Assembly: GCA_963718525.1 (NCBI GenBank) | Contig: OY970355.1 | Location: 32,001 to 96,000, forward strand | DNA length: 64,000 bases | From: Candidatus Dormiibacterota bacterium | Lineage (GTDB): Bacteria > Chloroflexota > Dormibacteria > Aeolococcales > Aeolococcaceae | Direction: 5' to 3' | Part shown: piece by piece, positions 7,174 through 37,404 of the stretch | Layout of the letters: every line of letters starts with the position of its first letter | Numbering within the stretch: the first letter of the stretch is position 1 | Program-made: the position numbers and the translations under genes | Notes under the pieces: generated by a model | Told to the model about the DNA's origin: nothing | What the model saw: the letters and a program-made list of their open reading frames with translations, nothing else | Databases searched by the model: none

Positions 7174-8198
7174 GCGGCCGCCTCGTGCGACACGCGCACC
7201 AGCTGTTCCAATGAGCGTCGGGCGGCGCCCGAATCAATCGATTCCCTGGCTACGGCAATCCCGTCGACGAGCGTCGTGACCGCATCGGCCGCTACCAGGA
7301 CCGCGGCGGCGTTGAGCAGCACGACGTCACGGCGCGGTCCGCGTTCGCCGTCGAGGAGGGATCGGATCGTCTCCGCATTGGTGGCCGCATCCCCGCCGCG
7401 AACGGCGTCGAGCGGCGCCGCCTCGAGCCCGACATCCTGTGGATCAAGCACGAATGCGCGAACCCTCTTGGCGGTGACCTCGAAGCATTCGGCGGGACCG
7501 GCGACGCCGAGCTCGTCGACGCCGTCGGGTCCCGTGAACACGAGCGAATGGACGTGTCCCAGTCGACGCAGCACCTCCGCCATCAGGGGCGTCAGCCGGG
7601 CGTTTGCAACGCCGAGCGCCTGGTGGCGCACCCGAGCAGGGTTGGCGAGCGGCCCGAGCACGTTGAACACCGTCCGGATCCCGAGCTCGCGGCGGACAGG
7701 AGCGACATGACGCAACGCGGGGTGAAAGTCGGGTGCGAACAGAAATCCGATCCCGGCCTCGACAACGCATCGGCGAACTCCCTCCGGCGAAAGCGAGATC
7801 ACCACACCGAGTGCTTCGAGGACGTCGGCGCTTCCGCATCGTGATGACGCGGCGCGATTGCCATGCTTGGCAACGGGACACCCGGCACCAGCCGCGACCA
7901 GCGCCGCTGCGGTCGAGATGTTGAAGGTCCCCGCAGCATCGCCACCGGTCCCACACGTATCGACCGCCTCGACAGGCAGTGAGACCGGCGTTGCGTGATC
8001 TCGCATCGACTCGACCATGCCGGCGAGCTCGTCAACGGTCTCACCCTTGGTGCGCAGGGCGGCCACGAGCGCTCCCACCTGAGCGGGTGTCGCCTCCCCC
8101 TCCATCATCGTGTCCATCACCGCACGTGCTGTCCCGACATCCAGCGAGCGCAACGTCACGATGGTCTCGAGTGCCTGCCGCATCGTCTCCTCGCCCAT
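7170..8198 (-). CDS. trpD: Anthranilate phosphoribosyltransferase
   Basis: DTCGTGGD, FNISTA, KHGNRAASSRCGSADVLEALG, FLFAPDFHPA, RTVFNVLGPLANP and GVDEL motifs. Confidence 0.96.
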   Translation of the reverse strand: MGEETMRQALETIVTLRSLDVGTARAVMDTMMEGEATPAQVGALVAALRTKGETVDELAGMVESMRDHATPVSLPVEAVDTCGTGGDAAGTFNISTAAALVAAGAGCPVAKHGNRAASSRCGSADVLEALGVVISLSPEGVRRCVVEAGIGFLFAPDFHPALRHVAPVRRELGIRTVFNVLGPLANPARVRHQALGVANARLTPLMAEVLRRLGHVHSLVFTGPDGVDELGVAGPAECFEVTAKRVRAFVLDPQDVGLEAAPLDAVRGGDAATNAETIRSLLDGERGPRRDVVLLNAAAVLVAADAVTTLVDGIAVARESIDSGAARRSLEQLVRVSHEAAA

Positions 8199-8251
8199 GG
8201 CGGGCGACGGTAGCACCGAGCGTGAGCAGCGCGATCCATATACTCGGATGG

Positions 8252-9058
8252 ATGACCGCGCGCACCCTGGCTCCCTTTGATCCCGACGTCGTCCGGCCGT
8301 GGCACCTCGGCAACGGGCAGCGGGGCGCCCTGCTGATCCATGGGTTCGCGAGCACGCCGCCGGAGTTACGCCGTCTTGGCGAGACCCTCGCGGCGAACGG
8401 GTTCCGGTGTTACGCGCCCGCGCTCCCGGGTCACGGGACGACGCCGGAGGACCTCGAGCGAACCCGCTGGCAGGACTGGGCCGCGTATGTCGCGGCGGCC
8501 TTTGACGAGCTCGCTGCGGAATGCGGCGACGTCGTCGTCGCCGGTCAGTCGATGGGCGGTGCGCTCGCGCTGCACCTGGCGGCACACGACCTTCGTGTCC
8601 GCGCCGTGGCCACGCTCGCCGCGCCGATCTGGTTGAGCGGTCCGCTGCCTGCCTTGCTCCCGCTGATCAAGCGGGTGGTGCGCTGGCACCGCACGGGCGA
8701 CGATGTCGACCTGTGGCATCCCGACGCGGTCGAGGAGTTGTACAGCTATGGCATCCGGCCGACGCGCAGCATTGACGAGCTTCGTCGACTGTGCGCCGCG
8801 GTGCGCAAGGAGCTTGCCGAGATCCGGGCTCCAGTGCTGGTCGTGCACGGGGAGCGGGATCGATCCATCGATCCGCGGTGCGCCCGCGAGATAGCGCGCC
8901 GCCTGGTCGGCAGTGAGGAGGTGCGGCTGCGGCTGCTCCCGCGGAGCGGTCATGCCATCTCCGTCGACGTTGATCGCGACAGCATCAACGCAGAGATCCT
9001 GCAATGGTTCGAGCGCTTCGCACGGCTGGCGCAGGCCCCTGCGACCGCAGGACGATGA
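8252..9058 (+). CDS. Alpha/beta-fold carboxylesterase / monoacylglycerol lipase-like
   Basis: LIHGF, PGHG, GQSMGG nucleophile elbow, HGERD and SGH. Leaderless start after TATACT. Confidence 0.88.
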   Translation: MTARTLAPFDPDVVRPWHLGNGQRGALLIHGFASTPPELRRLGETLAANGFRCYAPALPGHGTTPEDLERTRWQDWAAYVAAAFDELAAECGDVVVAGQSMGGALALHLAAHDLRVRAVATLAAPIWLSGPLPALLPLIKRVVRWHRTGDDVDLWHPDAVEELYSYGIRPTRSIDELRRLCAAVRKELAEIRAPVLVVHGERDRSIDPRCAREIARRLVGSEEVRLRLLPRSGHAISVDVDRDSINAEILQWFERFARLAQAPATAGR

Positions 9059-9059
9059 G

Positions 9060-9350
9060 TCAGCTGGAATCGCGATCGGATTCCAGCAGCCGCGCTGCGA
9101 GCGCCGGGTCGATCACTGGATTCTCGAGAGGTCCCGCATCGAGATCTCGATGACGCTTCGACGTATGGCGTTGTGGCGCCTGGCTGGTTTCGCGCGCCGC
9201 GTCACGGATGACATCACCGCAGCCGGCACAGCGGAGCACCGCGGCCGATGTTCCCCTGCCCGCATATTCGCGGTGCGAGAAGCGCAGCTCACCGCCACAG
9301 TGCGCGCAGCGCCGCCGCGGCTTGGCTTCGCGCGGAGTCTCGGCGTTCAT
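9060..9350 (-). CDS. Small hypothetical zinc-ribbon protein (CAHC...CAGC)
   Basis: 96 aa with two CxxC pairs; TACGCT hexamer 7 nt before the ATG. Confidence 0.6.
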   Translation of the reverse strand: MNAETPREAKPRRRCAHCGGELRFSHREYAGRGTSAAVLRCAGCGDVIRDAARETSQAPQRHTSKRHRDLDAGPLENPVIDPALAARLLESDRDSS

Positions 9351-9400
9351 GCAATCAAGCGTACGGCCTCGAGCGCGTGGACGGCATGGGCGCCGGCCGG

Positions 9401-9982
9401 ATGACGATCCCAGAGTTGATCGTGGATCGTTTACGCGCAGCGGTGCGCGCTCCGCGCGTTGCGCTGACGGCGCCGCCGGATGACCTCCGGCCGGCGTCGG
9501 TGCTGCTCCTGTGCGACCCGCGGACCGCCGGCGTGCCGCTGCTTTTCGTGCTCCGCTCCGAGGAGCTTCGCCAGCACCCCGGTCAGATCGCGTTTCCGGG
9601 TGGCGGCGCGGAAGCCTCCGACGCCGACGCGGTGGCGACCGCGCTGCGCGAGGCTCGAGAAGAGCTCGGCATCCAACCCGAGAACGTCGAGGTGCTCGGT
9701 TTGCTCTCTCCATTCTCGACGGTGGTCTCCGGTCGATGGCTCACGCCCGTCGTGGGGCTGCAGCGGACGTCCATCGACTTCAGGAGCGACGACTTCGAGA
9801 TAGCGGAGTGGTTTCGCATCGATCTCGCGGAACTCCTGGTGGCACCGCATACCGTGCGCGACATCGAGCGCAACGGCATGCGCGGCCGCGTGCACTATTA
9901 CGAGGCGTCAGGCCGCGTCATCTGGGGTGTCACCGGAGCAATCCTCCACGAGCTCCTCGAGCGCCTCGGCAGAACCGACTGA
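9401..9982 (+). CDS. Nudix CoA pyrophosphatase (NudL/Nudt7-like)
   Basis: LRQHPGQIAFPGG, TALREAREELG and IWGVTGAIL motifs. Confidence 0.9.
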   Translation: MTIPELIVDRLRAAVRAPRVALTAPPDDLRPASVLLLCDPRTAGVPLLFVLRSEELRQHPGQIAFPGGGAEASDADAVATALREAREELGIQPENVEVLGLLSPFSTVVSGRWLTPVVGLQRTSIDFRSDDFEIAEWFRIDLAELLVAPHTVRDIERNGMRGRVHYYEASGRVIWGVTGAILHELLERLGRTD

Positions 9983-25662: not shown

Positions 25663-26469
25663 ATGGCCGCGATGCCGGAACCGCTGTTCACTCCCAACAA
25701 GCGCGGCTACGTGCCGAGTGACGATGCCCGGGGTCCCTGGGATCGCAGCGCCATGCACGGTGGGCCGCCCGCGGCGCTCATGGCCGCTGTCATGGAAGCG
25801 CTGCCGACCGAGGCGCCGATGGCCATCGTCCGGACCACTGTGGAAATCTTCCGCCCGGTGCCGCTGCGCCCCGTCGAGGTGGCCGCGCGAATCGAGCGCG
25901 AAGGCCGCCGCGTCCAGATGCTGATGGCAACGCTCACCGACGGCAACACCGAGCTGTGCCGAGCCACGGCGTGGCGCATGCGCATTGCCGACCTCGATCT
26001 CGGCGAGCAGCCCGCACCCGAGGTGCCGTTCGCCGGACCCGATGACTCAATTGCGCACGTTCCGGAGAGCGACGATCCTGCATTTCATCGCACCGGGATG
26101 GAGATGCGTTACGCGCGCGGGTCCTTCGAGGACCAGGGGCCAGCGACCGTATGGATGCGCCTCGCCGTGCCGGTCATCGCGGGCCAGACGCCGACACCGC
26201 TGCAGCGCGTGCTCGCCGCCGCCGATTTCGGCAATGGTGTGTCGGCGGCACTGCCGTGGGGACAGTTCCTGTTCATCAACACCGATCTCACCGTGTATCT
26301 GCATCGCCAGCCGGAAGGCGAATGGATCTGTCTCGACGCCAGCACCGACGTCGACGCGCACGGCGTCGGCGTCGCTCACAGCAGGCTCTACGACCAACGC
26401 GGTACGGTCGGCCGCTCGCTGCAGGGCCTGTTCATCGACCGAGTGCGGGTGACGCCACCGCACGCCTGA
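25663..26469 (+). CDS. Double hotdog-fold thioesterase-family protein
   Basis: GPWD..MHGGPP, AADFGNG and FINTDLTV motifs. Start at 25663 or 25672. Confidence 0.88.
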   Translation: MAAMPEPLFTPNKRGYVPSDDARGPWDRSAMHGGPPAALMAAVMEALPTEAPMAIVRTTVEIFRPVPLRPVEVAARIEREGRRVQMLMATLTDGNTELCRATAWRMRIADLDLGEQPAPEVPFAGPDDSIAHVPESDDPAFHRTGMEMRYARGSFEDQGPATVWMRLAVPVIAGQTPTPLQRVLAAADFGNGVSAALPWGQFLFINTDLTVYLHRQPEGEWICLDASTDVDAHGVGVAHSRLYDQRGTVGRSLQGLFIDRVRVTPPHA

Positions 26470-26474
26470 CGGTG

Positions 26475-27188
26475 TCAGGGGCCGAGCAGGCTCGCAACCC
26501 GGGGGTCGTCGCGAATGGGCTCGATGTCGGCATCGTCGAGCGCGTGCGCGCGCAGCCCCGGACGGCTCCGAAGCGCCGCGCGCAGCAGTGGCAGCGCGTC
26601 GTCGGCATTGCCATTGCGCGCGAAGAAACAGGCGAAGTTGTAGTCGGCGACTGGCTGGTTCTCGGGGAACAGGTCGGAGTCGAGCGCATGACTCCACGTC
26701 GCCGCCTCCTCTGCTCCGGTCGGGTCGCCGTGCTCGACCGCCCAGTAGCCGAGGTGCTGCGCAACATGGCCGTGACCATTGCCCGGCACGACAAGCCACA
26801 CCGGGCCACCGTTTCCGGAGCGCTCTCGCAGCAAGTCCGCATCGCTGCAGGCGCGAACCGCCTCAATCAGTGCGGCGTAACTCGCAGCCGCGGCCGTACT
26901 GACGGCGGCTGCGGAATCCTCGCGATGCACCTCGTAGATCTCTGCGTTGCGGGCGTCGAGGTCGCTGTCGGTGCTGGGTCCCTCGTATGGCAACTCCAGG
27001 CGCGCGGCGTCGAGCACGCCCACAGCGTGCTCGCGCCATGCGTTGAGATGCGCGATGTTGTCCTTCGCGGTCCAGAGACCGGGCTCGTGCGATGGCGAGT
27101 CGTCGCACAACCCGAGCAACACGGACTCCTTCGTCTGCGCCGCCTCGAGCGACTGCACGAGACGGTCCCGGAGCGACTCGCCAGTCAC
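26475..27188 (-). CDS. DinB-like four-helix domain plus C-terminal TPR
   Basis: WTAKDNIAHL and HVAQHL (DinB-type His residues); YNFACFFA...AL..DADI TPR tail. GTGA overlap with the TM0106 stop. Confidence 0.72.
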   Translation of the reverse strand: MTGESLRDRLVQSLEAAQTKESVLLGLCDDSPSHEPGLWTAKDNIAHLNAWREHAVGVLDAARLELPYEGPSTDSDLDARNAEIYEVHREDSAAAVSTAAAASYAALIEAVRACSDADLLRERSGNGGPVWLVVPGNGHGHVAQHLGYWAVEHGDPTGAEEAATWSHALDSDLFPENQPVADYNFACFFARNGNADDALPLLRAALRSRPGLRAHALDDADIEPIRDDPRVASLLGP

Positions 27189-30100
27189 GCGGAGAGGATA
27201 ACCTGGCCCGGCAGGGCAGCGCTCCACGGCTCGGCCATCTCCACGAAACGGCACAACGCGTTGACGAGTTGCATCTGCTCCGGCGTGTGGCAGCGTGCGC
27301 GCAGCAACTCGGGAGAGCAGACGAGCACGGACAGCCCGCGCGCTCGCGACACGGCCACGTTGAGACGGTTGAGGCTGAACAGGAACTCAAGGTTGCGTGG
27401 CAGGTCCTCAACGCTGGATGTCGCCATCGTGAAGATGCTGACGGCAGCCTCCTGCCCCTGAAAGCGATCCACTGTCCCGACCCTCGCGCCGGATGGCAGG
27501 GTCTCGACCAGGCACGCGACCTGGGCGTTGTACGGTGCGACGACCACGATGTCGTCGAGCGACAGCTGCCGCACATCACCGGAGTCGTCTCGCCATGCAG
27601 CGCGCGTCAGATGGTCGAAGATGGTGCGGACTCGTTGCGCCTCAGCGTCGGAGCGAACCCTGTCGCCCTGGTGATCGACGAATGACGTACGCAGGCCGGT
27701 GATCGGAGAGCGGTGCAGCAGCACCGCCTGTGTTGCGCACTGTGGTTCGGACCCGAGCCGTCCCTCGTAGAACGACCGCGACACGAACGCAGTGACGTTC
27801 GGGTGCATCCGCCACGTGAGGTCGAGGAGCACGCCTCGATCTGGAGCGATCGTCACGTCGCCGCCCAGGAGGTGATCGAGCGCCGAGACGCCGACGCCCG
27901 CCGGGTGGCTCCCCTGGAGTGGTTGCGCCAGCTGCCGCGGATCACCGACGAGGACGAGGTTGCGGCCGGCACGCGACACTGCCAGCACATCCGCGAGTGA
28001 CATCTGGCCGGCCTCATCGACGATCAGCGTGTCAAGTGCGCCCTCGAGCTGCGGACGCGAGAAGAGCCACGCCGTGCCTCCGATGACATCCACGCTGCCG
28101 TCGGCGAGAGCAGCATCAACCATGTCGTTACCGCGTGCGACCTTGATCGCCGGGGTGCTGATGCCATCCGATTGACGGTGTTGCATCCGAACGTCGAGGC
28201 CAACCGAGGGTGCGAGCTCCTCGATCTTCGCAAGCAGCGTTCGAATCGCGTTGTGACTGACAGCGGTGACGCCGATCGGGCCTCGCCGCCTGGCGATCAA
28301 CGCGAGCACCGCGAGTGCGGCCATGTGGGTCTTGCCCGCGCCGGGTGGACCCTGCACTGGAAGGCATCCCTCCTGCAGTCCGAGGATGAGACGGATTGCG
28401 GCCTCCGATGCGGACTCGCCGGGCTCACGGAGCGCACAATCCACGCCGGAGCGCAAGCGTGGTGGAACGCGCATCAGCAGGTCACGTCCAGCGCGATTCG
28501 GGCCGGTCGCGTTCGGCCCGTTGGCAACAACCCAGCGGCCGAGATCGAGGAGCGACTCCTCCTGAGCATCGGTCGGGATCGGCTTGGACGGGATCAGAAA
28601 GCGAACGGCGCCTCGTTCGGCCTGGCCGGCGGTGCGTGACAGCGTGATCGACCCGCGCGCGGAGTCGAGGTAAGTGACCTCGCCGGCAGTGGGTGCGCGA
28701 CCCACCTCGCAGTGAGGATCAAGCGGCGTGTCGCCGAGACCGATGCGATGTTCCTGGGGCTCGAACCCGTACCGCTCGATGATGCGCCGCGCTTCAACGT
28801 GCGAGCCGATCATCTCGAGCGGCCCGAGCGCATACGTGTCGCGCTCGAGTTCCTCGGGACTCATCGCGAGCTGGTCGTAGTGCCGCCACCAGTTCACCTT
28901 GTTCTCACGCCGGTGGTATGACAGCAGCGGTGCGAGCAACCACCTCGCCCGCTCGACATCGGTCTGCACCTCAGGATCCGCCGGCAGACCGTCGATCAGT
29001 GCCGCAGCGATCTCCTGGGTCGCGACGATCTTGGTGCGGAGGTCGTCACCCACGTCGCGGTCGACGATGGGCGGCCGCTGGATCGGAGCGCCGCGAAGCT
29101 GCTCCTCCTCGACGCGACGCGCCTCGAGCCAGTCGCGCAGCTGCAGCGTTGAGATGCAATCGCGCTCGTTGTACATCGCAATGTCGTCCAGCAGCGTCTG
29201 GTCGCCAGTGCCACTCTGCTCGCGGCTTGTCAGCCAGCGCTCGTACACCACCATGCTCCCGGCGGCATCCGCGACCGATTCCTCGCGAGCGGGCATGTAC
29301 AACCGCTCCACCTTCTTCAGCGAATACGAGTCGGTCGACAGCCGCACACCCTGCCGCACAACGCGATAGAGGTCGACGAGCACGTCGTTGCGGAGCAGCC
29401 GGTCCACCTCTTCCTCGCGGGTGCCGTGACGGCTCATCAGCCGGCGCAACGCGGTCTTCTCGTATGCCGCGTAGTGGTAGATGTGCATGCTGGGATGGCG
29501 ATCGAGCTGCTCGATGGCATGGTCGACAAAGCCCTCGAACGCACGCCGTTCCTCGGCGTCGTCATGACCCCACCACGCTCGATAGGTTCCCTGCGCATCC
29601 ACGGCACCGAAGAGGTATTCAAGGGGAACGTCACGCGCGAGGCCATCGCCCTCCATGTCGAAGAAGATGTCTCCGGGCGACGGCGCCGGCAGCGCGCAGA
29701 GCCCACGACCCACCTCCCACGCATCGAGCAGCTGATGTCGCGGCACGCCGTCCGGGTGAGGACCTCGGTGCTGCAGCGCCGCTTGGGCACGCAGCTCACT
29801 GAAGGTCCCCGGGCTCATGCGTGGAGGTGCCTCGGTATCGTCGGACACCTGCGCAAGTGCCGTCATGGTGGCGATGCCCGCTGTCTTCAGCGCGAGCACC
29901 TGGCCAGACCGCATCCGCGCGACCTGCGACAGATGGTCGTCACGTTTCCGCTGCGCGGCGCAGCGGGCCGCGAAGCCGCACACACCGCAGTGCTCGACGG
30001 GGTCCGGGTACGTATCGCCGACGCGGGCGAGCATCGCGGACTCGAAGTCGAGCTTCACGCCCGCGTGGTAGGCGGAGAACTCGTCGACTCCATACGAGTG

Positions 30101-30649
30101 CTGGATCCCGTCACCGAGGATCACCTGCATCTGCGCGGGTGGCGTCCCCTGGAGCCGCCGGAGGTGCGCCGAGTACTCGCAGAGCTGGAGGATCGCCTCA
30201 GAGCGGACCCGTCGGGCGAGCTTCGCATCAGCGGCTTCGTACGCCCACGCCCAGCGCGCGCTCGGAGTTTCAACTCGGAGCAGGAAATCGGCGCGACCCA
30301 TCCAACGGCCGTCGAAGAACGTCGGCTGATAGATCACGTCGTAGCCCTCTGCCATCGCCGCAAGCGTCTCGGCCTCGAGGGCGGCGAGCTCGTTCGCGCT
30401 GCTTGCGAACCGATCGAGGTCGTCCTCGAACGCCTTGACGCTCATGCCTTGTGCCCGAAGCAACTCGAGATGGTTGCGCTCGTGCCCCGCTCCGAGCGTT
30501 GCGAGCACCTCGCTCAGGGCTGACCGATCGGCGGGGATGACCTCGCCGCCCGCGACGCGTCGCTTCAGCGTGACCAGGTGACCGCACGCGAGGTAGTCGC
30601 ACAGGTCCGTCGCCGTGTAGACGGGGCAACCGTCTTCCAGGTAGCGCAT
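27185..30649 (-). CDS. TM0106-family RecB-like nuclease / RNase H-like / SF1 helicase fusion
   Basis: GRADFLLR...DAKLAR (PD-(D/E)xK), FFDMEGD, HYAAYE, YSLKKVE, YNERDC, QGPPGAGKT, DEAGQ, GDPRQL, APYNAQ, GTVDRFQGQE and NRLNVAVSRA motifs. Confidence 0.93.
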   Translation of the reverse strand: MRYLEDGCPVYTATDLCDYLACGHLVTLKRRVAGGEVIPADRSALSEVLATLGAGHERNHLELLRAQGMSVKAFEDDLDRFASSANELAALEAETLAAMAEGYDVIYQPTFFDGRWMGRADFLLRVETPSARWAWAYEAADAKLARRVRSEAILQLCEYSAHLRRLQGTPPAQMQVILGDGIQHSYGVDEFSAYHAGVKLDFESAMLARVGDTYPDPVEHCGVCGFAARCAAQRKRDDHLSQVARMRSGQVLALKTAGIATMTALAQVSDDTEAPPRMSPGTFSELRAQAALQHRGPHPDGVPRHQLLDAWEVGRGLCALPAPSPGDIFFDMEGDGLARDVPLEYLFGAVDAQGTYRAWWGHDDAEERRAFEGFVDHAIEQLDRHPSMHIYHYAAYEKTALRRLMSRHGTREEEVDRLLRNDVLVDLYRVVRQGVRLSTDSYSLKKVERLYMPAREESVADAAGSMVVYERWLTSREQSGTGDQTLLDDIAMYNERDCISTLQLRDWLEARRVEEEQLRGAPIQRPPIVDRDVGDDLRTKIVATQEIAAALIDGLPADPEVQTDVERARWLLAPLLSYHRRENKVNWWRHYDQLAMSPEELERDTYALGPLEMIGSHVEARRIIERYGFEPQEHRIGLGDTPLDPHCEVGRAPTAGEVTYLDSARGSITLSRTAGQAERGAVRFLIPSKPIPTDAQEESLLDLGRWVVANGPNATGPNRAGRDLLMRVPPRLRSGVDCALREPGESASEAAIRLILGLQEGCLPVQGPPGAGKTHMAALAVLALIARRRGPIGVTAVSHNAIRTLLAKIEELAPSVGLDVRMQHRQSDGISTPAIKVARGNDMVDAALADGSVDVIGGTAWLFSRPQLEGALDTLIVDEAGQMSLADVLAVSRAGRNLVLVGDPRQLAQPLQGSHPAGVGVSALDHLLGGDVTIAPDRGVLLDLTWRMHPNVTAFVSRSFYEGRLGSEPQCATQAVLLHRSPITGLRTSFVDHQGDRVRSDAEAQRVRTIFDHLTRAAWRDDSGDVRQLSLDDIVVVAPYNAQVACLVETLPSGARVGTVDRFQGQEAAVSIFTMATSSVEDLPRNLEFLFSLNRLNVAVSRARGLSVLVCSPELLRARCHTPEQMQLVNALCRFVEMAEPWSAALPGQVILSA

Positions 30650-30888
30650 CAGCGCATCATCCTGGCTCGCCGGCTCGTGCGGTCGCGCGGCAGCGGCAGG
30701 ATGAGCTGCCGGCCGGCCTGGCGAACGAGCGATCCGATCCGATCATTCGGCGCCCCACTGGGCTGCGGTGACCGTGCCGGCACAATCACGAAACGTTCGC
30801 CGTGGGAGGCGAGCAGGCTCTGCGCTCGCCGCAGGTACGCTCCCTCGCCGGCGCCGGCATCGACGGAAACCGAGTTGTCTGCATCCAT
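30649..30888 (-). CDS. Small hypothetical protein (79 aa) coupled to TM0106
   Basis: Stop overlaps the TM0106 ATG (TGATG); start lies 6 nt after CATCGT, like other leaderless genes here. No recognisable family. Confidence 0.4.
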   Translation of the reverse strand: MDADNSVSVDAGAGEGAYLRRAQSLLASHGERFVIVPARSPQPSGAPNDRIGSLVRQAGRQLILPLPRDRTSRRARMMR

Positions 30889-30894
30889 GCCCTG

Positions 30895-30935
30895 ACGATG
30901 CGCGTCACCGACGACAGGTGCCTGTCGCGTACGGT
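30895..30935. promoter_or_regulatory. Divergent promoter pair sharing the palindrome CGACAGG-TG-CCTGTCG (candidate WYL-regulator site)
   Basis: Palindrome at 30912-30927. Minus strand: TGTCGT-10 nt-CATCGT-6 nt-ATG. Plus strand: TACGGT-6 nt-GTG of the GNAT gene. Confidence 0.55.
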
Positions 30936-30941
30936 TTGCTG

Positions 30942-31469
30942 GTGCCTGACGAGATCGAGATCCGCCCCATTCGCGAATCCGAATACGCGGCGGCCGGCGA
31001 AGCGACCGCACGAGCCTATCGTGAGTTCCTGACACCCGACAGGCCGGGGTTCGCGGCGTACGTGGCGCGCATCGCCGATATCGGTGCTCGCGTGAACCAC
31101 GCCACGGTCCTGGTGGCTGTCATCGAGGGCGTGATCGCCGGATCCGCGACGCTCGAGATCGAAGCGCGCGTCTCACCGACGACCGCCCAGCCGCTCGAGC
31201 CGGACGAGGCGCACCTCCGCATGCTCGGAGTGAGCCCTCACCTTCGCGGCCTGGGGATCGGGCGCCGCCTCGTCGACGCATGCATCGAGGTGGCTCGCGA
31301 ACGCGGCAAACGGCGGCTCACGCTGGACACGTCTCCGGTGATGCGGGCAGCGCAGCGGATGTACTCGACGATGGGATTCACGTCGACCGGTGAGCGCAGC
31401 ATGCCCGACGGCGGCGTGCTCCTCGGCTACACCATCGATGTCCAGTCCGTAGCCCCGGCGACCCGCTAG
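30942..31469 (+). CDS. GNAT-family N-acetyltransferase
   Basis: LRMLGVSPHLRGLGIGRRLV acetyl-CoA motif and AQRMYSTMGF. Confidence 0.9.
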   Translation: MPDEIEIRPIRESEYAAAGEATARAYREFLTPDRPGFAAYVARIADIGARVNHATVLVAVIEGVIAGSATLEIEARVSPTTAQPLEPDEAHLRMLGVSPHLRGLGIGRRLVDACIEVARERGKRRLTLDTSPVMRAAQRMYSTMGFTSTGERSMPDGGVLLGYTIDVQSVAPATR

Positions 31470-31478
31470 GCTCGTCCC

Positions 31479-32477
31479 GTGCCAGGCGTGTACGAGAAGG
31501 GAGAGAAGGAGCTTCGAGTCATCAAGCTCTTCGCGCGGCTGTGCGAGACCGAGGTCGGACTGACGACCCGGCAGCTCGCCGAGGAGCTCGAGGTAAATGC
31601 GCGCACGGTGCAGCGCTACGTCGCGACCCTGCGGGACAACGCGGGGATCGACGTCGAGGAGGCCGGAGGACGCTGGCGGATCGGCAAAGGGAGCCTGCTG
31701 CCGCCGCTGCAGCTCGACCACTACCAGGCCACGCTCCTGCTGGTGGCCGTGCGCCTGCTCCAGCAGGTGCGTCCCGAGCAGGACCCGGCCCTTGTCGGCG
31801 CGCTCGCCCACCTGTCTCGAGCGCTCAGCGTCCCGGTCGTCAGCGAATATCTTCGCCGGACCCTGGCCGCCGCCGAACGCCAGCCTGCCGACAGCGAGCG
31901 GCTCAAGGTGGAGCGCACCGTCATCGACGGTTTCGTGCTGCATCGCGAGATCGAGGTCCGGTACGTCGACGCCAAGGGCAACGAGACGCGTCGTGATCTC
32001 CGCCCCTATTTCATCCAGCCGACGGCCGAAGGGCGGCACATCTACGTGTTCGCGCTGGACTCGGTTTCGCACGAGGTTCGATCCTGGCGGCTCGACCGGA
32101 TCCGCTCCGCTCGCCTGCTGCCCACGACGTTCTCGGTCCCGACCGACTTCGACATCGACACGGTGCTCGGGGCCGCGTGGGCGATCTGGCAGGGTCCGGG
32201 TGGCGACCGTGTGGTGCTGCGCTTCTCGCCCGAGGCGCGCCAGTGGGTCGATGAGAGCCCATGGCCCGCCCACACGCAGCGCCTCGACCTGCCCGGCGGC
32301 GGGATCGAGATTCGACTTGACGTCACGGGCGAGGTCGAGATGCGCCCATGGTTGATGCGCTGGGGAGCCAACGTCGAGGTGCTCGAGCCGGCGTCGCTAC
32401 GCCGCCACATCGCGGAGTCGCATGCGGCCGCGGCGGCACTGTACGCGTCGAGTCCAGGCAAACGGGGTAAAACGTGA
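31479..32477 (+). CDS. HTH-WYL-WCX transcriptional regulator (PafB/PafC/DriD-like)
   Basis: [22 protein letters not shown] domain ([20 protein letters not shown]) and WCX ([18 protein letters not shown]). Confidence 0.93.
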
Positions 32478-32902
32478 GCACCATGGAAGACAAGGTCACC
32501 CTCACCGACAAAGTAACCCTCACGGACGACGAGTGGCGTCAGCGCCTGACGCCTGAGCAGTATTCGGTCCTTCGCAAGGCGAGCACCGAGCGCCCCTTCA
32601 CCGGGCAGTACGTCCACGTGGACGATAAGGGCGTCTACAAGTGCGCCGGCTGCGGCGCCGAACTGTTCAGCTCGGACACCAAGTTCAACTCCGACACGGG
32701 CTGGCCGAGCTTCTTCGCTCCGCTCACTGACTCGGCGGTCCAGGAGCATCGGGACTGGAGCATGGTGATCCCGCGCACGGAGATTCGCTGTGCGAAGTGC
32801 GGCGGTCATCTCGGCCACGTCTTCCCGGACGGCCCGGAGCCCACCGGTCAGCGCTACTGCATGAACTCCTGCGCGCTCAAGCTGGAGAAGTCGGCGGGCT
32901 GA
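32474..32902 (+). CDS. msrB: Peptide-methionine (R)-S-oxide reductase
   Basis: [37 protein letters not shown] and RYCMNS motifs. Confidence 0.97.
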
Positions 32903-34941
32903 TGCCGCCCGGGCCCTCGCCTCGGGCTCGCGCGGTCCTCGAGCAGACCTTCGGATTCGCGGACTTCCGGCCGGGACAGGCCGATGTCGTCGCGGCCACC
33001 GAGTCTCGGCGGGACGTGCTCTTCGTGGCACCGACCGGCTCGGGGAAGAGCATCGCGTACTGGGTGCCGGGGATCGCGGGTGGCGGCCTCACCATCGTGG
33101 TGTCTCCGCTCATCGCGCTGATGGTCGATCAGGTCGCACGGCTGATCGAGCTCGGTGTCCCGGCCGCGTGCCTGCACAGCCAGGTGTCAGCGGCCACCCG
33201 CGCTGAATCGTTGCGCGCGGCCGCAGCCGGCGAGCTGCGCTTCCTCTATCTCGCCCCGGAGCGCCTCGGCGCTCCCGGGTTCCTCGACAACCTCAGGAAC
33301 CTCACGGTCGATCGCTTCGTCGTCGACGAAGCGCACTGCATCTCGAGCTGGGGCCACGACTTCCGTCCCGATTACAGGCGGCTCGGCGACGCCATCGCCG
33401 CCTGCGGCCGGCCACCGGTCGGCGCATTCACCGCAACGGCAACGCCGCGGGTGCGCGACGACATCGCCGCCAGCCTCGGCCTGCAGATGCCAGTCGAGCG
33501 CGTCACCGGGTTCGTGCGCGACAACCTGACCATGTCGGTGGTTCGCTGTCGGGGGGCCGCGGACAAGCGCGACGCACTGCTGAGCCTTGTGCGCCGCGGC
33601 GAGGGCCGTGCGCTGATCTACTGCGGGAGCAGGCGCAGCACCGACGAGGTCACGGACCTGCTCGCCGGCGCAGGGGTCGCGGTGGCCGCCTATCACGGCG
33701 CCGTCGACGGGGATACCCGGCAGGCCGTCCACGAAGGGTTTACCGCCGGCAGGCTCCAGGCGATCGTCGCCACGTCCGCATTCGGCATGGGGGTTGATTT
33801 CCCGGACATCCGCAGGGTCATCCACCACGATTTCCCCGGGAGCCTCGAGGAGTACTACCAGCAGGCGGGTCGCGCCGGGCGGGATGGCGAACCATCCGAA
33901 TGCATCCTCCTGTACTGCCCCGCCGACCGTCAGCTCCAGGAATTCTTCATCGAGCAGGCCTACCCCGAGCGAGATGCCGTCCGCGCCGTGTATCGCGAGC
34001 TCCTCCGCGAGGGCAGGGATGCCATCGAGGACTGGCAGGCTCGTGGGGTGGCGGTCAACGCGGCTCGCGCCGCGCTCGATCTGCTCCGGCGAACCGAGGT
34101 GGTGCAGCCCGACGGCAGCATTCGACGCCTCACCGGGCCGCCGGTCGACTTCGAGGAGCAGACGCTGCTCAAAGCCAACGCGTACGCGCGCGTGAACCAG
34201 GTCATGGAGTACGCGGCGTCACGTGGCTGCCGGCATGCACGCATCGCGGACTATTTCGGCGAGCAGGGCGTGGCCCGGACGTGCATGGCGTGCGACAACT
34301 GCCTCGACAGCAATCGTGCGTCGTACATCGCAGTCGAGAGTGCCCACGTCACTGCGGCGCTCGGGTGCGTGGCGCGCTTCGACGGTCACCTTGGCGGCGT
34401 TCGCATCGCATCGATCCTGCGTGGTTCCACGGATGCCTGGACGGCTTCGCGCTCGTGGGTCTCGGACCTGCAGTGGTTCGGCGCGCTCCGCGGCTGGGAG
34501 CTGGAAACCATCCGCGGGTTGCTCGAGCGGCTGGTCGAGCTCGACTGCATCACTCGTGGACACGGCGAGAAACCAACCCTTGGCATCACGCTCCGTGGCA
34601 CCGCTGTACTGCGCGGCGAGGAGAAACTCGATGTCGACGTGCGTGCCGCACGGTCGCCGCGCAGAGGCTCCCGAAGTCCGGCAGCCGCGACAGCGGGGGC
34701 GACGATGACGCCCGATGTTGCCGCACGGTTCGAGGCGTTACGGAGCTGGAGGCTGGAGGTGGCTCGACGCACGCAGGTGCCGCCGTACGTCGTCTTTCAC
34801 GACAGGACGCTGGCCGAGATCGCACACCGCCGGCCGTCGTCAGCCGCGTCGCTCGCGGCAATTCCCGGGGTTGGACCGGCCAAGCTCGACCGCTATGGAG
34901 AGTCCCTACTTGCGGTTCTGTGTGACGGTGGTGAGTCCTAG
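32902..34941 (+). CDS. recQ: ATP-dependent DNA helicase RecQ with RQC and HRDC domains
   Basis: FRPGQ, PTGSGKS, VDEAHCISSWGHDFRPDY, TATAT, AFGMGVD, QQAGRAGRDG, Zn-binding CR..CDNC and HRDC VPPYVVFHD. Confidence 0.96.
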   Translation: MPPGPSPRARAVLEQTFGFADFRPGQADVVAATESRRDVLFVAPTGSGKSIAYWVPGIAGGGLTIVVSPLIALMVDQVARLIELGVPAACLHSQVSAATRAESLRAAAAGELRFLYLAPERLGAPGFLDNLRNLTVDRFVVDEAHCISSWGHDFRPDYRRLGDAIAACGRPPVGAFTATATPRVRDDIAASLGLQMPVERVTGFVRDNLTMSVVRCRGAADKRDALLSLVRRGEGRALIYCGSRRSTDEVTDLLAGAGVAVAAYHGAVDGDTRQAVHEGFTAGRLQAIVATSAFGMGVDFPDIRRVIHHDFPGSLEEYYQQAGRAGRDGEPSECILLYCPADRQLQEFFIEQAYPERDAVRAVYRELLREGRDAIEDWQARGVAVNAARAALDLLRRTEVVQPDGSIRRLTGPPVDFEEQTLLKANAYARVNQVMEYAASRGCRHARIADYFGEQGVARTCMACDNCLDSNRASYIAVESAHVTAALGCVARFDGHLGGVRIASILRGSTDAWTASRSWVSDLQWFGALRGWELETIRGLLERLVELDCITRGHGEKPTLGITLRGTAVLRGEEKLDVDVRAARSPRRGSRSPAAATAGATMTPDVAARFEALRSWRLEVARRTQVPPYVVFHDRTLAEIAHRRPSSAASLAAIPGVGPAKLDRYGESLLAVLCDGGES

Positions 34942-34986
34942 GCGGTCGCTACCCGATAGATCAGCAGGACGAGCTTCACCGCATCC

Positions 34987-35466
34987 TCAGCGTACGGCCT
35001 TTTTCACAAGCGCCGTGATCTTTGCCTCTTCGGTGGCAGTCAATTTGGTGAGCGCGTACTGAATCGGCCACATCGCGCCGTCATCGATCTTCGCCTTGTC
35101 GCTGAAGCCGACCGTCTGATATCTGACCTTGAACTTTCCGGCGTTCTGGAAGTAGCAGATGACACTGCCGTCCTTGGTGTAGGCGGGCATTCCGTACCAG
35201 GTTTTCGGTGCCAGGTTCGGCGCCGCGGCCGTGATCAGCGCATGAACCTTTTTTGCGATGGCCCGATCCGGCTCCTGCATCCTGGCGATCGCCGCGAGCA
35301 AGTCGGTTTCGCCATCCGCCCTGGCCGCCTCCGCCTTCAGCTCCCGGACGCGCTCGCGCGCCGCGGCCTTCTCTTCAGGACTGAATCCTTTTGACGCTGT
35401 AGCGTTCGCGGTTGTGCGCTTTGCGGGTTTCTGCGTGCCTTTGGTCGTCGTTTTGGTTGGCGCCAT
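34987..35466 (-). CDS. DUF1801 / YdhG-like protein
   Basis: PKTWYGMPAY, FQNAGKFKVRY and MWPIQYAL motifs; GGAGAGGAG RBS. Confidence 0.85.
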   Translation of the reverse strand: MAPTKTTTKGTQKPAKRTTANATASKGFSPEEKAAARERVRELKAEAARADGETDLLAAIARMQEPDRAIAKKVHALITAAAPNLAPKTWYGMPAYTKDGSVICYFQNAGKFKVRYQTVGFSDKAKIDDGAMWPIQYALTKLTATEEAKITALVKKAVR

Positions 35467-35583
35467 CAATCGCGCTCCTCTCCATGGTTTGACGAGAACA
35501 CCTTGAGTGTATGGACCCGGACGAGCATGCGCTCGACATCCACCTCACGCGCATCCATCATGAGCAATTGCCCCAGTAGCGGG

Positions 35584-36090
35584 TCAGGAAATAGGGTCGG
35601 CGACCTCGTTGAGGGACGGAATGTTGCATGTAGCAGCGATTCCCCGCCGCGAGAAATACTTCTGGTGGTAGTCCTCGGCGTCCCAGAACCGTGCCGCCGG
35701 CACAATCTCGGTGACGATCGGGCGCCGGTAGCGCCCCAACTCGTCCATCCGCTTCTTCGACGCGACCGCGGCAGCCTCCTGCTCCGGTGAGTGGAAGAAG
35801 ATCACCGACCGGTAGTTGTCACCGACGTCGGGTCCCTGGCGGTTCAACTGCGTGGGGTCGTGATTCATCCAGAAGATGTCCAGCAACGTGTCGTAGCTGA
35901 CACGTGCGGGGTCGAACGTCACCTCGACCGCCTCCGCGTGCCCGGTGCGATGCGAGCACACCGCCTCATACGAGGGCGCCTGCGTGAAGCCGCCCGTGTA
36001 GCCGACCTTGGTCCGGGTGACGCCGTCGACCTGTTCGAACACCGATTCCACGCCCCAGAAGCATCCCGCACCGAATGTCGCAGTTTCCAT
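35584..36090 (-). CDS. msrA: Peptide-methionine (S)-S-oxide reductase
   Basis: GAGCFWG, TGHAE, HDPTQLNRQGPDVG and AEDYHQKY motifs. Leaderless ATG 6 nt after CATACT. Confidence 0.97.
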   Translation of the reverse strand: METATFGAGCFWGVESVFEQVDGVTRTKVGYTGGFTQAPSYEAVCSHRTGHAEAVEVTFDPARVSYDTLLDIFWMNHDPTQLNRQGPDVGDNYRSVIFFHSPEQEAAAVASKKRMDELGRYRRPIVTEIVPAARFWDAEDYHQKYFSRRGIAATCNIPSLNEVADPIS

Positions 36091-36123
36091 GGTGCGAGTA
36101 TGCCTCGATCCCACCTCAGCCAA

Positions 36124-37404
36124 TCACGAGGCCGAGAGCGCCAGCTTGACCTGCCCGGTCGCATACACCGGCGGCCAGACCACGACGCTCTGACGAGGCG
36201 CCTGCCATTGCCACACCACCGCAGCCGCCCTGGTGTTCTGCCCGAGCTGGCCGGGGGCGGTCGAGAAGAGCACGCCGCCGCCGTTGGGGAGGCTGCCGCT
36301 CGGCAGATCGAGCGCACGCGCCGCAGCGGCGATGCTCTGCGCGCCTCCGTCTCCCGCACGTTCGAGGACGTCGGCAAAGAGCACCCAGGCTGCGCTGAAG
36401 CCGGCGATTCCCTCCTCGTCGGGCGCCGCCTGTCCGGTGTGCTGCTTCCAGAGCGCCGCGAATCGGTTGTAGAGCGCCCTCGCCTGAGGATCGAGGGCGC
36501 CCGGGTTGAAGTTTCCCTGGGGACGATCAGAGGCGAACACCCCGACCGCGGCCGAGCCGAGGACGTTGCCGAAGTCCTGGTCGCACTGCGCCATGGTCGT
36601 CCCCATGAACACCTTCACCTGCAGTCCCGCAGCGAGGAATGCCCGGCGAAACGCGATGCCGTCCTGGATGTGCGACGACAGCACGAGAATGTCAGGCTTC
36701 TCAGCCGCGAGCGCCCGCATCACCGGCGCCCAGTCGGGCGTGTAGGGGTTGTAGACGAACTCACCGGCGATGCTCAGCCCTCCGGCCTGGAGCGCGCTGC
36801 GCGTGGCGTCGGCAACCGAGTGGCCGTACTCGTCATCCGCCGTGACGAAGGAGACGCGAATCTTGTCGATGGGGACGCCCATCCGCGGCACCAGCTCGTC
36901 GAGCATGAACGTCCCGGAGTTGGCACCGAGCTCGGCACCGTTGACTCCGACGCGGAAGATCAGGGGCGATCCCTGTCCGGTCACCCGGTCGGCGACAGCG
37001 CCCGTCTCCCAGTACACCAGGCCGGCGCCCGATACCGCGGCCGCGGCCGGGATCGACAGCTGCGACGAGTATGCGCCAATCACGACAGGAACTCCGTCGT
37101 TGCGCAGGCTCGCAACGGCAGCGGGAATCTGCGCCTGGTCCTCGACGTCACGCACGTCGAGCGAGATCGGGCGGCCGGCGATGCCACCCGCTGCGTTGAC
37201 CATCGCCGCCGCGAGTGAGGCCCCGAGGTACTCGTCGGTCGAGCCGGGCGCCGTGCTGCCGGACAGCGGGAAGATCGCCCCGATGCGCAGCGGAACGGGC
37301 CCCGCCGCTGCCACCGCCGCACACGCCGCGGCGAGCAGGGCGAGGATCAGAGCACCGACCAAGCCGAACGAACGGGTGCGTGCAGCGCGGGGCTCCCCTG
37401 GCAC
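36124..37404 (-). CDS. Branched-chain amino acid-type ABC substrate-binding protein
   Basis: Signal peptide, LRIGAIFPLSG, VNAAGGIAGRPI, IGAYSS and QWQ...VVWP motifs. Confidence 0.87.
   Translation of the reverse strand: MPGEPRAARTRSFGLVGALILALLAAACAAVAAAGPVPLRIGAIFPLSGSTAPGSTDEYLGASLAAAMVNAAGGIAGRPISLDVRDVEDQAQIPAAVASLRNDGVPVVIGAYSSQLSIPAAAAVSGAGLVYWETGAVADRVTGQGSPLIFRVGVNGAELGANSGTFMLDELVPRMGVPIDKIRVSFVTADDEYGHSVADATRSALQAGGLSIAGEFVYNPYTPDWAPVMRALAAEKPDILVLSSHIQDGIAFRRAFLAAGLQVKVFMGTTMAQCDQDFGNVLGSAAVGVFASDRPQGNFNPGALDPQARALYNRFAALWKQHTGQAAPDEEGIAGFSAAWVLFADVLERAGDGGAQSIAAAARALDLPSGSLPNGGGVLFSTAPGQLGQNTRAAAVVWQWQAPRQSVVVWPPVYATGQVKLALSAS

Follow-up and report, generated by a model that had tools for sequence, protein, structure and literature searches.

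Introduction

The described systems closest to the one considered here are built around SiwR, PafBC and DriD. SiwR of Mycobacterium smegmatis is described as a single protein with winged helix-turn-helix (wHTH), WYL and WCX domains, which forms a homodimer, senses single-stranded DNA (ssDNA) via arginines of its WYL domain and binds an imperfect palindrome of 19 bp that occupies the -26 region of a divergently transcribed operon with a DinB_2 gene (PMC10693628). PafBC of the Actinobacteria is a heterodimer of PafB and PafC encoded beside pafA, and its non-palindromic motif, tGTCgg(N10)tA(N3)T, carries a GTC element at -28 to -23 that replaces the -35 box (PMC8635444). DriD of Caulobacter crescentus is reported to bind, as a homodimer, a palindrome whose half-sites are CGAC and CTGTCGC, with Y168, R176, R178, Y192, R204 and R207 as key ssDNA-binding residues; it activates recA and its own gene, its promoters retain both -35 and -10 elements, and its best-known target is a cell-division inhibitor (PMC9186387). 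Here we analyze a 64,000-nt stretch of a Candidatus Dormiibacterota genome (assembly GCA_963718525.1, contig OY970355.1, positions 32,001 to 96,000; hereafter the window), in which a wHTH-WYL-WCX protein (the WYL protein) is encoded in a divergent locus. The left arm of this locus encodes a protein of 79 amino acids (aa), a TM0106-family nuclease-helicase and a DinB-TPR protein, and the right arm a GNAT acetyltransferase, the WYL protein, MsrB and a RecQ-family helicase.

The WYL protein is probably a homodimeric, ssDNA-sensing activator of the PafBC, SiwR and DriD kind, which turns on the left arm together with repair genes, as argued here from the anatomy of the locus, the conservation of an operator and its linkage to the regulator gene, a fixed promoter geometry and conserved ssDNA-contact residues. 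The module appears to work like SiwR and PafBC and, as far as sequence analysis can tell, is a real WYL DNA-damage regulon that is ordinary in kind, yet undescribed. A literature search returned nothing in print on Dormibacterota DNA repair of this kind, although supplements on the PafBC regulon may list a TM0106-type gene; a search for TM0106/TIGR03491 gave no account of the function of the family, as judged by titles and the start of abstracts, and among the matches listed for WYL in Chloroflex*, only the SiwR paper is relevant.

An earlier sequence-only reading of this DNA had likened the locus to SiwR and PafBC, and the comparison is apt. As described for SiwR, the regulator gene stands on the opposite strand from the target operon and a palindrome, here of 18 bp, fills the -26 region, between the -35 position and the -10 box, of an operon that is transcribed divergently and includes a DinB-superfamily gene (PMC10693628). 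Unlike in SiwR, the DinB_2 protein of the window carries a TPR end and is encoded by the third and last gene, behind the genes of the 79-aa protein and the nuclease-helicase. SiwR is reported to control adjacent genes (PMC10693628), whereas here the operator is reused at an adnB-like gene and, in relatives, at lhr, recA and recJ; SiwR also comes from a different phylum, and the likeness is one of published description. PafBC shares with the locus the GTC element at -28 to -23, the gap of 10 nt to the -10 box and the missing -35 box (PMC8635444), as well as adnAB-like genes, lhr and recA as regulon content, coexistence with LexA and many leaderless targets (PMC8635444, PMC6789036, PMC8682763); adnA and lhr are reported to be PafBC-dependent in mycobacteria (PMC8682763). 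It differs in the heterodimer and the non-palindromic site, as opposed to one gene, a palindrome and a small, lineage-variable regulon here, and the similarity of PafC to the WYL protein is remote (E 3.5e-5). An assignment to PafBC proper was rejected in view of the single WYL gene at the locus, the paralogue 3.19 Mb away, the GNAT and msrB neighbors and the palindromic site. DriD shares the half-sites, which in its palindrome stand 1 bp closer to each other (CGAC-N7-GTCG as against CGAC-N8-GTCG here; PMC9186387).

Operator Conservation and Linkage to the WYL Gene

For comparison, 77 loci were fetched with a profile of the WYL protein and grouped by WYL identity (at least 77%, taken as genus-level; 55-68%; below 55%). 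Alignment of the regions upstream of GNAT revealed an 18-bp palindrome with the consensus GCGACA-N6-TGTCGC, which reads aCGACA-N6-TGTCGC in the window. Among 49 related loci 47 retain it, and while the half-sites are constant, the spacers vary, giving 31 distinct 22-mers. In the two exceptions, L076 and L078, ~1.7 kb has been inserted between the arms (about 7970-9460), and the palindrome stays before the small open reading frame (ORF) and TM0106 while it is missing before GNAT, whose upstream sequence differs. This insertion is a natural experiment in which the TM0106 arm retained the operator, which we count in favor of activation of that arm. When 46 loci of more distant relatives (681 kb in all) were scanned with a position weight matrix (PWM), a site was found near the WYL gene in 42, and the four loci without it are those in which the upstream DNA is missing. 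The palindrome accompanies the WYL gene in each of three different neighborhoods; in many of the distant loci the gene beside the site encodes Lhr (1500-1680 aa, with DEAD_assoc and Lhr winged-helix domains) and not TM0106, and in some the site lies directly after the WYL gene. Within the genome of the window, which is a single contig of 3.34 Mb, the site between the two arms has the best PWM score, 27.6 bits against a null best of 20.9.

Exact-site counts track the WYL orthologue when GCGACA-N6-TGTCGC is compared with the same pattern read backwards as a control. There are 27 sites against 2 controls in five other genomes and 98 against 1 in 24 genomes of the genus (1-7 sites each), and neither pattern occurs in 15 genomes from sister-family genera that have no orthologue. 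Within the family, 30 genomes with an orthologue (profile E<=1e-97) contain 119 sites and 17 controls, and 16 genomes without one contain 15 and 3. In two genomes of the genus, G006 (C2:2116957-2117950) and G012 (C7:79526-80524), the WYL gene is split over frames or bears stops, possibly owing to sequencing error or recent decay, and these two genomes keep 6 and 2 exact operator sites, respectively, despite the broken gene.

Promoter Geometry and Direction of Regulation

The half-site TGTCGC is followed after exactly 10 nt by nAnnnT in 75 of the 77 promoters compared, which represent five different genes, namely those of the small-ORF/TM0106 arm (46/47), adnB-like genes (12/13), lhr (10/10), recA (5/5) and recJ (2/2), the chance of such a match being ~0.03 per position at this base composition. 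In the GNAT arm this arrangement is found in none of 47 loci. A start codon stands 5-8 nt past the -10 box in 11/12 adnB-like, 10/10 lhr and 46/46 TM0106-arm loci, which points to leaderless mRNAs, and it is from these start codons that the promoter positions were derived. In the window the minus strand reads TGTCGT-N10-CATCGT-N6-ATG, with the ATG at 30888, so that the operator occupies -40 to -23 of the leftward operon and its proximal half-site, TGTCG(T), -28 to -23. The leftward -10 boxes are weak (cAnnnT) and have no -35 element, the -35 position falling in the non-conserved N4/N6 spacer of the palindrome. In the GNAT arm, a TAnnnT box stands at offset 1 from the palindrome in 37/47 loci and never at offset 10; the operator spans -31 to -14 of this rightward promoter, and the two -10 boxes of the window are 29 bp apart. 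The leftward promoter is of the PafBC type in these respects and the rightward promoter is not. When both directions were examined at each site, the canonical geometry was present in exactly one of them at three of the four best sites of the own genome and at 17 of 22 sites in other genomes.

The segment 30895-30935, for which the sequence-only reading had predicted binding of the WYL protein, does hold the conserved palindrome and both -10 boxes. Co-induction of the two arms, proposed there as well, is unlikely, because the rightward arm has no activator geometry and the -10 boxes are 29 bp apart. Judged by the same promoter geometry, the left arm is likely an activated target, while the right arm, which encodes the regulator itself and is most likely expressed at a basal level, is more likely autoregulated than co-induced.

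One and the same palindrome, GCGACACGTCGATGTCGC, precedes a holin-X-like gene in two genomes (L154:2501-2518 and L162:2501-2518), with PBP and MerR genes alongside. Neither direction shows the N10/-10 geometry there, and the palindrome is for this reason probably the site of another regulator.

The Regulator and Its ssDNA-Contact Residues

The WYL protein combines HTH_11 (28.4 bits, residues 13-60), WYL (37.2 bits, residues 147-212) and WCX (63.6 bits, residues 244-319) domains, all above the Pfam cut-offs, in one chain within the ~320-340 aa of the wHTH-WYL-WCX class. Its closest solved structure is DriD (8tp8, E 2.7e-8), and PafC (7p5x) matches at E 3.5e-5. In a HMMER alignment to 8tp8, in which chain numbering equals native numbering plus 20, five of the six ssDNA-binding residues of DriD are identical, with Y168, R178, Y192, R204 and R207 corresponding to Y162, R172, Y189, R201 and R204, respectively. 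The sixth, R176, aligns with T170, which R171 adjoins. All five matched residues are invariant or nearly so among 32 orthologues. The genome encodes only one further WYL paralogue, which lies 3.19 Mb away.

Further Predicted Targets of the Regulon

Targets were surveyed at the 22 exact sites outside WYL loci in the five other genomes. They include recA and recJ (two genomes each), TM0106, small unknown genes, an adnB-like gene for a UvrD+PD-(D/E)XK protein that is divergent from Sir2, and, in three genomes, an operon for an SMC-like ATPase, a YbjN-like protein and unknown proteins; a few sites lie inside genes or beside tRNA-synthetase, RelA and SecG genes. Of 30 family loci, 13 have a site at the 5' end of the adnB-like gene, among them those of all five genus genomes and of the own genome (C1:1740609), and lhr bears one in 10 loci. 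At recA a site is present in 4 of 30 family loci, which are all 4 genomes of one genus, and additionally in G041; recA as a general target was rejected, as the site is confined to one genus. Some of the sites were found in unpublished genomes, namely one at recJ (of two), one at recA and the one in L154 (all from G044, identical with G129) and one g55 adnB-like site (from G144); published genomes back each target class, recJ then by the single published genome G041. The genome of the window also encodes LexA. Taken together, the sites describe a predicted regulon that is small, lineage-variable and dominated by DNA end-processing and recombination genes. The suggestion of a regulon for DNA end processing thereby finds support, in that elsewhere in the class this operator precedes recA, recJ, lhr and adnB-like genes, and the regulon is accordingly of the DNA-damage type.

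Several further observations were made at operator-linked genes. A conserved leaderless protein of 65-112 aa, whose N-terminus reads V[IL]DAxxRFLRxNPEL, is encoded downstream of an operator and -10 box in canonical arrangement in four genomes, which belong to different genera; in breadth of conservation it may rank next to the WYL locus within the regulon. It is found at L129:4065-4364 (+), which is C1:2832764-2833063 of the own genome, at L170:2541-2879 (+) and as unboxed ORFs in L164 and L159; in the own genome it lies between PadR and RibD_C genes and has no Pfam match. The other small or unknown operator-linked proteins gave no Pfam match at E<=0.05 either. The operon with the SMC/AAA_21-like gene encodes unknown proteins of 130 aa and 420-450 aa and a YbjN/TY-Chap3-like protein (L168:1587-6357, L172:1119-4581, L161:1571-4122, L128:4784-9929), with one or two operator sites in three or four genomes and an ARPP-1 protein in L128. 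Before recA in L205, L207, L209, L210 and L157, a LexA-box-like GTAC-N4-GTTC was noticed by eye ~60 nt further downstream of the operator, and recA of that genus may be under dual control by WYL and LexA, like mycobacterial recA under PafBC and LexA. The recA of the own genome (C1:2411616-2412402, minus strand) matches in two pieces that overlap and lie in different frames (residues 60-262 and 1-65), which indicates a frameshift or an assembly error.

Locus Anatomy and Encoded Proteins

All seven genes and the domains assigned to them by the sequence-only reading were confirmed by Pfam and NCBIfam searches and by reading of the sequence (Table 1). The window has a G+C content of ~68%. Translational coupling is read directly from the sequence, in the left arm at TGATG (30647-30651) and GTGA (27185-27188), and in the right arm between WYL, msrB and recQ at GTGA (32474-32477) and TGATG (32900-32904). 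The divergent control region, estimated before at ~50 bp, measures 53 bp (30889-30941). For DinB-TPR, the small ORF, GNAT and recQ, starts shorter than the longest ORFs were used, which are backed by the overlaps, by relatives and by the promoter geometry. A scan for consensus promoters and terminators inside the arms returned one promoter-like and two terminator-like sites, at or below the shuffled expectation. A search for RNA runs that cover 26400-35000 listed none.

Table 1. Coordinates of the genes and control elements in the window.
Feature	Position	Strand	Basis or context
DinB_2 + TPR_END protein, 237 aa; last left-arm gene, GTG start	26475..27188	-	Pfam/NCBIfam
TM0106-family nuclease-helicase, 1154 aa	27185..30649	-	TIGR03491
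Conserved 79-aa protein; first left-arm gene	30649..30888	-	ORF conservation
Leftward -10-like hexamer CATCGT	30895..30900	-	6 nt before ATG at 30888
Operator palindrome ACGACAGGTGCCTGTCGC, proposed WYL-dimer site	30911..30928	.	Alignment of related loci
Rightward -10-like hexamer TACGGT	30930..30935	+	6 nt before GTG at 30942; 1 nt from operator
GNAT acetyltransferase, 175 aa; first right-arm gene	30942..31469	+	Acetyltransf_1
wHTH-WYL-WCX transcription factor, 332 aa	31479..32477	+	HTH_11, WYL, WCX
MsrB	32474..32902	+	SelR, TIGR00357
RecQ-family helicase, 679 aa	32902..34941	+	Five Pfam domains
DUF1801-like gene	34987-35469	-	Between recQ and msrA
msrA	35584-36123	-	Behind DUF1801-like gene; follows minus-strand gene 36124-37404

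The msrA gene does lie at about the distance from recQ that had been estimated as ~650 bp (643 bp), yet it does not belong to the right arm, because it is on the minus strand among minus-strand neighbors and forms part of another unit, at which no operator site was found. Of the proposed link to methionine-sulfoxide repair there remains solely the msrB gene after the regulator gene. A plus-strand ORF of 475 aa across msrA (35791-37218) was rejected as a shadow ORF, with no family and a G+C content at third codon positions (GC3) of 0.68; the likely real gene there is the minus-strand ORF at 36124-37404 (426 aa, GC3 0.85), which has a signal-peptide-like start.

The TM0106 protein matches the RecB-like nuclease family TIGR03491 at 252.8 bits (cut-off 97.45) and also contains RNase_H_2, AAA_11 and AAA_12 Pfam domains. 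Among 18 sequences, the iron-staple cysteines C22 and C221-x2-C224-x5-C230, the nuclease residues D121/E138/D141/K143 and Q155..Y159 and the helicase motifs Walker A (767-774) and DEAGQ (878-882) are invariant, and the acidic residues of the RNase H-like domain (PF13482) are conserved. Upf1, Sen1, DNA2 and IGHMBP2 are the closest solved helicases. The protein is accordingly predicted to be a Dna2-like enzyme with an iron-sulfur (Fe-S) RecB/Cas4-type nuclease, an RNase H-like exonuclease domain and a helicase of superfamily 1B (SF1B), and the RecB motifs, the C...CxxCxxxxxC staple and the SF1B helicase that define Dna2/Bad/AddB-type enzymes are all present at the level of sequence. Bad of Geobacillus and eukaryotic DNA2 are described with the same order of an N-terminal RecB-type nuclease with four-cysteine Fe-S staple and a C-terminal SF1B helicase, in a total of ~1150-1250 aa (PMC7430649). 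In contrast to Bad, TM0106 has the extra PF13482 domain between nuclease and helicase and belongs to a common family (of 8000 scored candidates, 7872 reached E<=1e-30), while Bad is reported to be rare, and the likeness is one of architecture only. In one protein, P0229 (1290 aa), a TM0106 nuclease-helicase is naturally fused to a C-terminal GNAT domain (residues 1192-1270); a functional link between GNAT and TM0106 on this basis was set aside as weak, given a single protein whose GNAT part is only 33% identical to the GNAT protein of the window, over 94 aa (E 0.002).

The 79-aa ORF, with a GC3 of 0.78, is a real conserved gene. In 43 of 45 related loci an intact small ORF begins 18-23 nt downstream of the operator 22-mer, and among 21 sequences M1, Y18, A22, L25, R56, Q61, L62, L64 and P65 are invariant; these proteins share a conserved helix, Y-x3-A-x2-L-x5-ELF, and the motif QL-x-LP, which does not vary. 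Searches of Pfam and NCBIfam assigned it to no family, and the ESM Atlas gave no lead. Beta-clamp-binding sequences follow a hexapeptide consensus of the QLSLPL or QLxLxL type within an extended region. The 79-aa protein carries QLILPL, which resembles such a hexapeptide and is a lead at the level of the sequence motif; QLSLPL is reported to serve as a strengthened clamp-binding motif in Escherichia coli epsilon (PMC3664792). The DinB-TPR protein matches DinB_2 at 31 bits on the longest ORF and 30.1 bits on the 237-aa form (cut-off 24.8), and TPR_END_plus of NCBIfam at 48.3 bits (cut-off 32).

In the right arm, GNAT matches Acetyltransf_1 at 64.3 bits and no NCBIfam equivalog at cut-off, and MsrB matches SelR at 170.2 bits and TIGR00357 at 177.2 bits. 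The helicase is of the RecQ family, with DEAD, Helicase_C, RecQ_Zn_bind, RQC and HRDC domains all above the Pfam cut-offs and a match to TIGR00614 at 364.5 bits (cut-off 219.8); against the equivalog TIGR01389 it scores 543.1 bits, under the cut-off of 640.2.

Conservation of the Gene Neighborhood

GNAT, WYL, msrB and recQ were matched in all 19 loci of the genus set. The flanking metallo-beta-lactamase, alpha/beta hydrolase and thioesterase genes are equally syntenic wherever the genus stretches or contigs reach, and synteny by itself would tell little. The conserved order of WYL, msrB and recQ that the sequence-only reading had proposed to look for in relatives holds within the genus, where recQ follows msrB in 35/35 loci, and not beyond it (0/21 in the 55-68% group). 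An msrB gene starts at most 150 nt after WYL in 36/36 genus-level loci and in 7/27 of the 55-68% group, and within 3.5 kb of WYL in 16/21 loci of the latter; linkage of recQ is confined to the genus and that of msrB is family-wide. GNAT lies directly upstream of WYL in 36/36 genus-level loci and 8/23 of the 55-68% group, and TM0106 is kept upstream in 8/23 of that group. DinB-TPR follows TM0106 in 31/33 genus-level loci and 4/20 of the 55-68% group; its absence from the other 16/20 suggests that DinB is not a conserved core target. In the group below 55%, msrB, recQ, GNAT and TM0106 were each found in 0/7 loci and DinB-TPR in 0/5. In L100 (9322-9996), L106 (9309-9986) and similar Lhr-linked loci, a 224-aa protein with a sub-threshold DUF1345 match takes the position of GNAT, and a gene for an M20 peptidase stands between WYL and msrB.

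Alternative Explanations

A fixed operator over the -35 region would also fit a repressor of the CapW/BrxR kind, which would sit on both promoters and be freed or loosened by ssDNA, so that both arms are de-repressed together. Activation itself is argued from analogy and from the missing -35 element, ssDNA-sensing WYL repressors have been reported (PMC11662680), the operator overlaps the core of both promoters, and the good TAnnnT box of the rightward promoter needs no activator. Repression is nevertheless unlikely in our view, as a -10 spacing that is exact to 1 bp in 75 of 77 promoters of five genes is typical of contact between protein and polymerase and equals the reported activator grammar of PafBC (PMC8635444), the -35 position coincides with the non-conserved palindrome spacer, the leftward -10 boxes are weak (cAnnnT), and the closest solved relative, DriD, is an activator. 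One could also dispense with a functional module, and regard the gene order as inherited and the palindrome as a generic repeat or structural element unrelated to WYL, given that unrelated flanks are as syntenic within the genus as the module and that recQ joins only there. This is improbable and largely refuted already by linkage, co-occurrence and promoter geometry: the palindrome tracks the WYL gene through three neighborhoods, stands in promoters at a fixed distance from the -10 boxes, is enriched only where the orthologue is present, and combines constant half-sites with a varying spacer. Lastly, the WYL protein might guard an anti-phage defense module made up of a Mokosh/Dpd-like nuclease-helicase and a RecQ/DpdF-like helicase, for which the sequence-only reading had proposed a test. 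WYL regulators are reported to flank defense systems often (PMC9186387), and PADLOC models match the helicase part of TM0106 (MkoA, E 7.6e-43), RecQ (DpdF, E 8.7e-161) and, through Cas-associated models, WYL. These matches are at the domain level only, and nothing beyond them speaks for phage defense; no complete known system of the kind that marks BrxR/CapW-type regulators is present, RecQ has the full housekeeping architecture including RQC and HRDC, the block is inherited vertically with metabolic flanking genes, unlike a variable island, and recA, recJ, lhr and adnB-like genes stand behind this operator as well. A role in defense is in consequence very improbable.

Several observations weigh against the WYL protein being the activator of a wider regulon through this palindrome. 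The genome of the window has no exact site, all its sites carrying one mismatch, and the PWM scores next to that of the divergent site (23.0, 22.3 and 21.1) are barely above the null maximum of 20.9; one of these three lesser sites, before an integrase fragment, is without canonical geometry, and lhr was rejected as a target in the own genome, with no PWM hit of at least 6 bits nearby. In 17 of 30 family loci the adnB-like gene has no site, and recA bears one in only 4 of 30 family loci and in 0 of 30 Chloroflexota-wide loci, a draw that is far broader than Dormibacteria and served as a negative control. There are also 15 sites against 3 controls in family genomes that have no WYL orthologue, an excess which could stem from incomplete genomes or from composition, and since the genomes compared are kin, the contrast between those with and without the orthologue amounts to a few evolutionary events and not to 46 independent trials. 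Finally, another protein could bind the palindrome, and the genome holds a second WYL paralogue.

Proposed Mechanism and Significance

With the WYL protein as an activator, the predicted binding, direction of regulation, inducing signal and enzyme roles would combine as follows. A WYL dimer would bind the palindrome between the arms (30911-30928), and upon DNA damage ssDNA on the WYL domain would cause the dimer to recruit or adapt the housekeeping RNA polymerase at the leftward promoter, yielding a leaderless mRNA for the 79-aa protein, the Dna2-like TM0106 enzyme and DinB-TPR. The rightward GNAT-WYL-msrB-recQ promoter would be basal, autoregulated and in competition with the leftward one. 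In the own genome the regulon would add the adnB-like UvrD/PD-(D/E)XK helicase-nuclease gene, which is divergent from a Sir2 gene, and the small leaderless gene, and in other Dormibacteria it would include lhr, recA and recJ. It would run beside a LexA system. Eukaryotic DNA2 is reported to partner RecQ-family helicases during end resection (PMC7430649). A more far-reaching proposal is possible though doubtful: a WYL response parallel to LexA that shares the -26/N10/-10 grammar of PafBC and has the damage-induced TM0106 operon as its lead target, in which the 79-aa protein would be a clamp adaptor that delivers TM0106 to the beta clamp, and, in this genus, the RecQ encoded on the other side of the operator would be its resection partner, as in eukaryotic Dna2-RecQ (Sgs1/BLM) pairs. 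If this were true, the shared grammar would suggest an origin that predates or spans the split between Actinobacteria and Chloroflexota.

The operator, promoter grammar and targets together offer a testable model of how a soil lineage that is widespread and uncultured regulates its response to DNA damage. Such a model would extend the PafBC-type design with a -26 element beyond the Actinobacteria, to a homodimer on a palindrome. It would also give the uncharacterized TM0106 family a physiological setting, that of a Dna2-like enzyme induced by damage, with the small clamp-motif protein, DinB-TPR, GNAT and RecQ as candidate partners.

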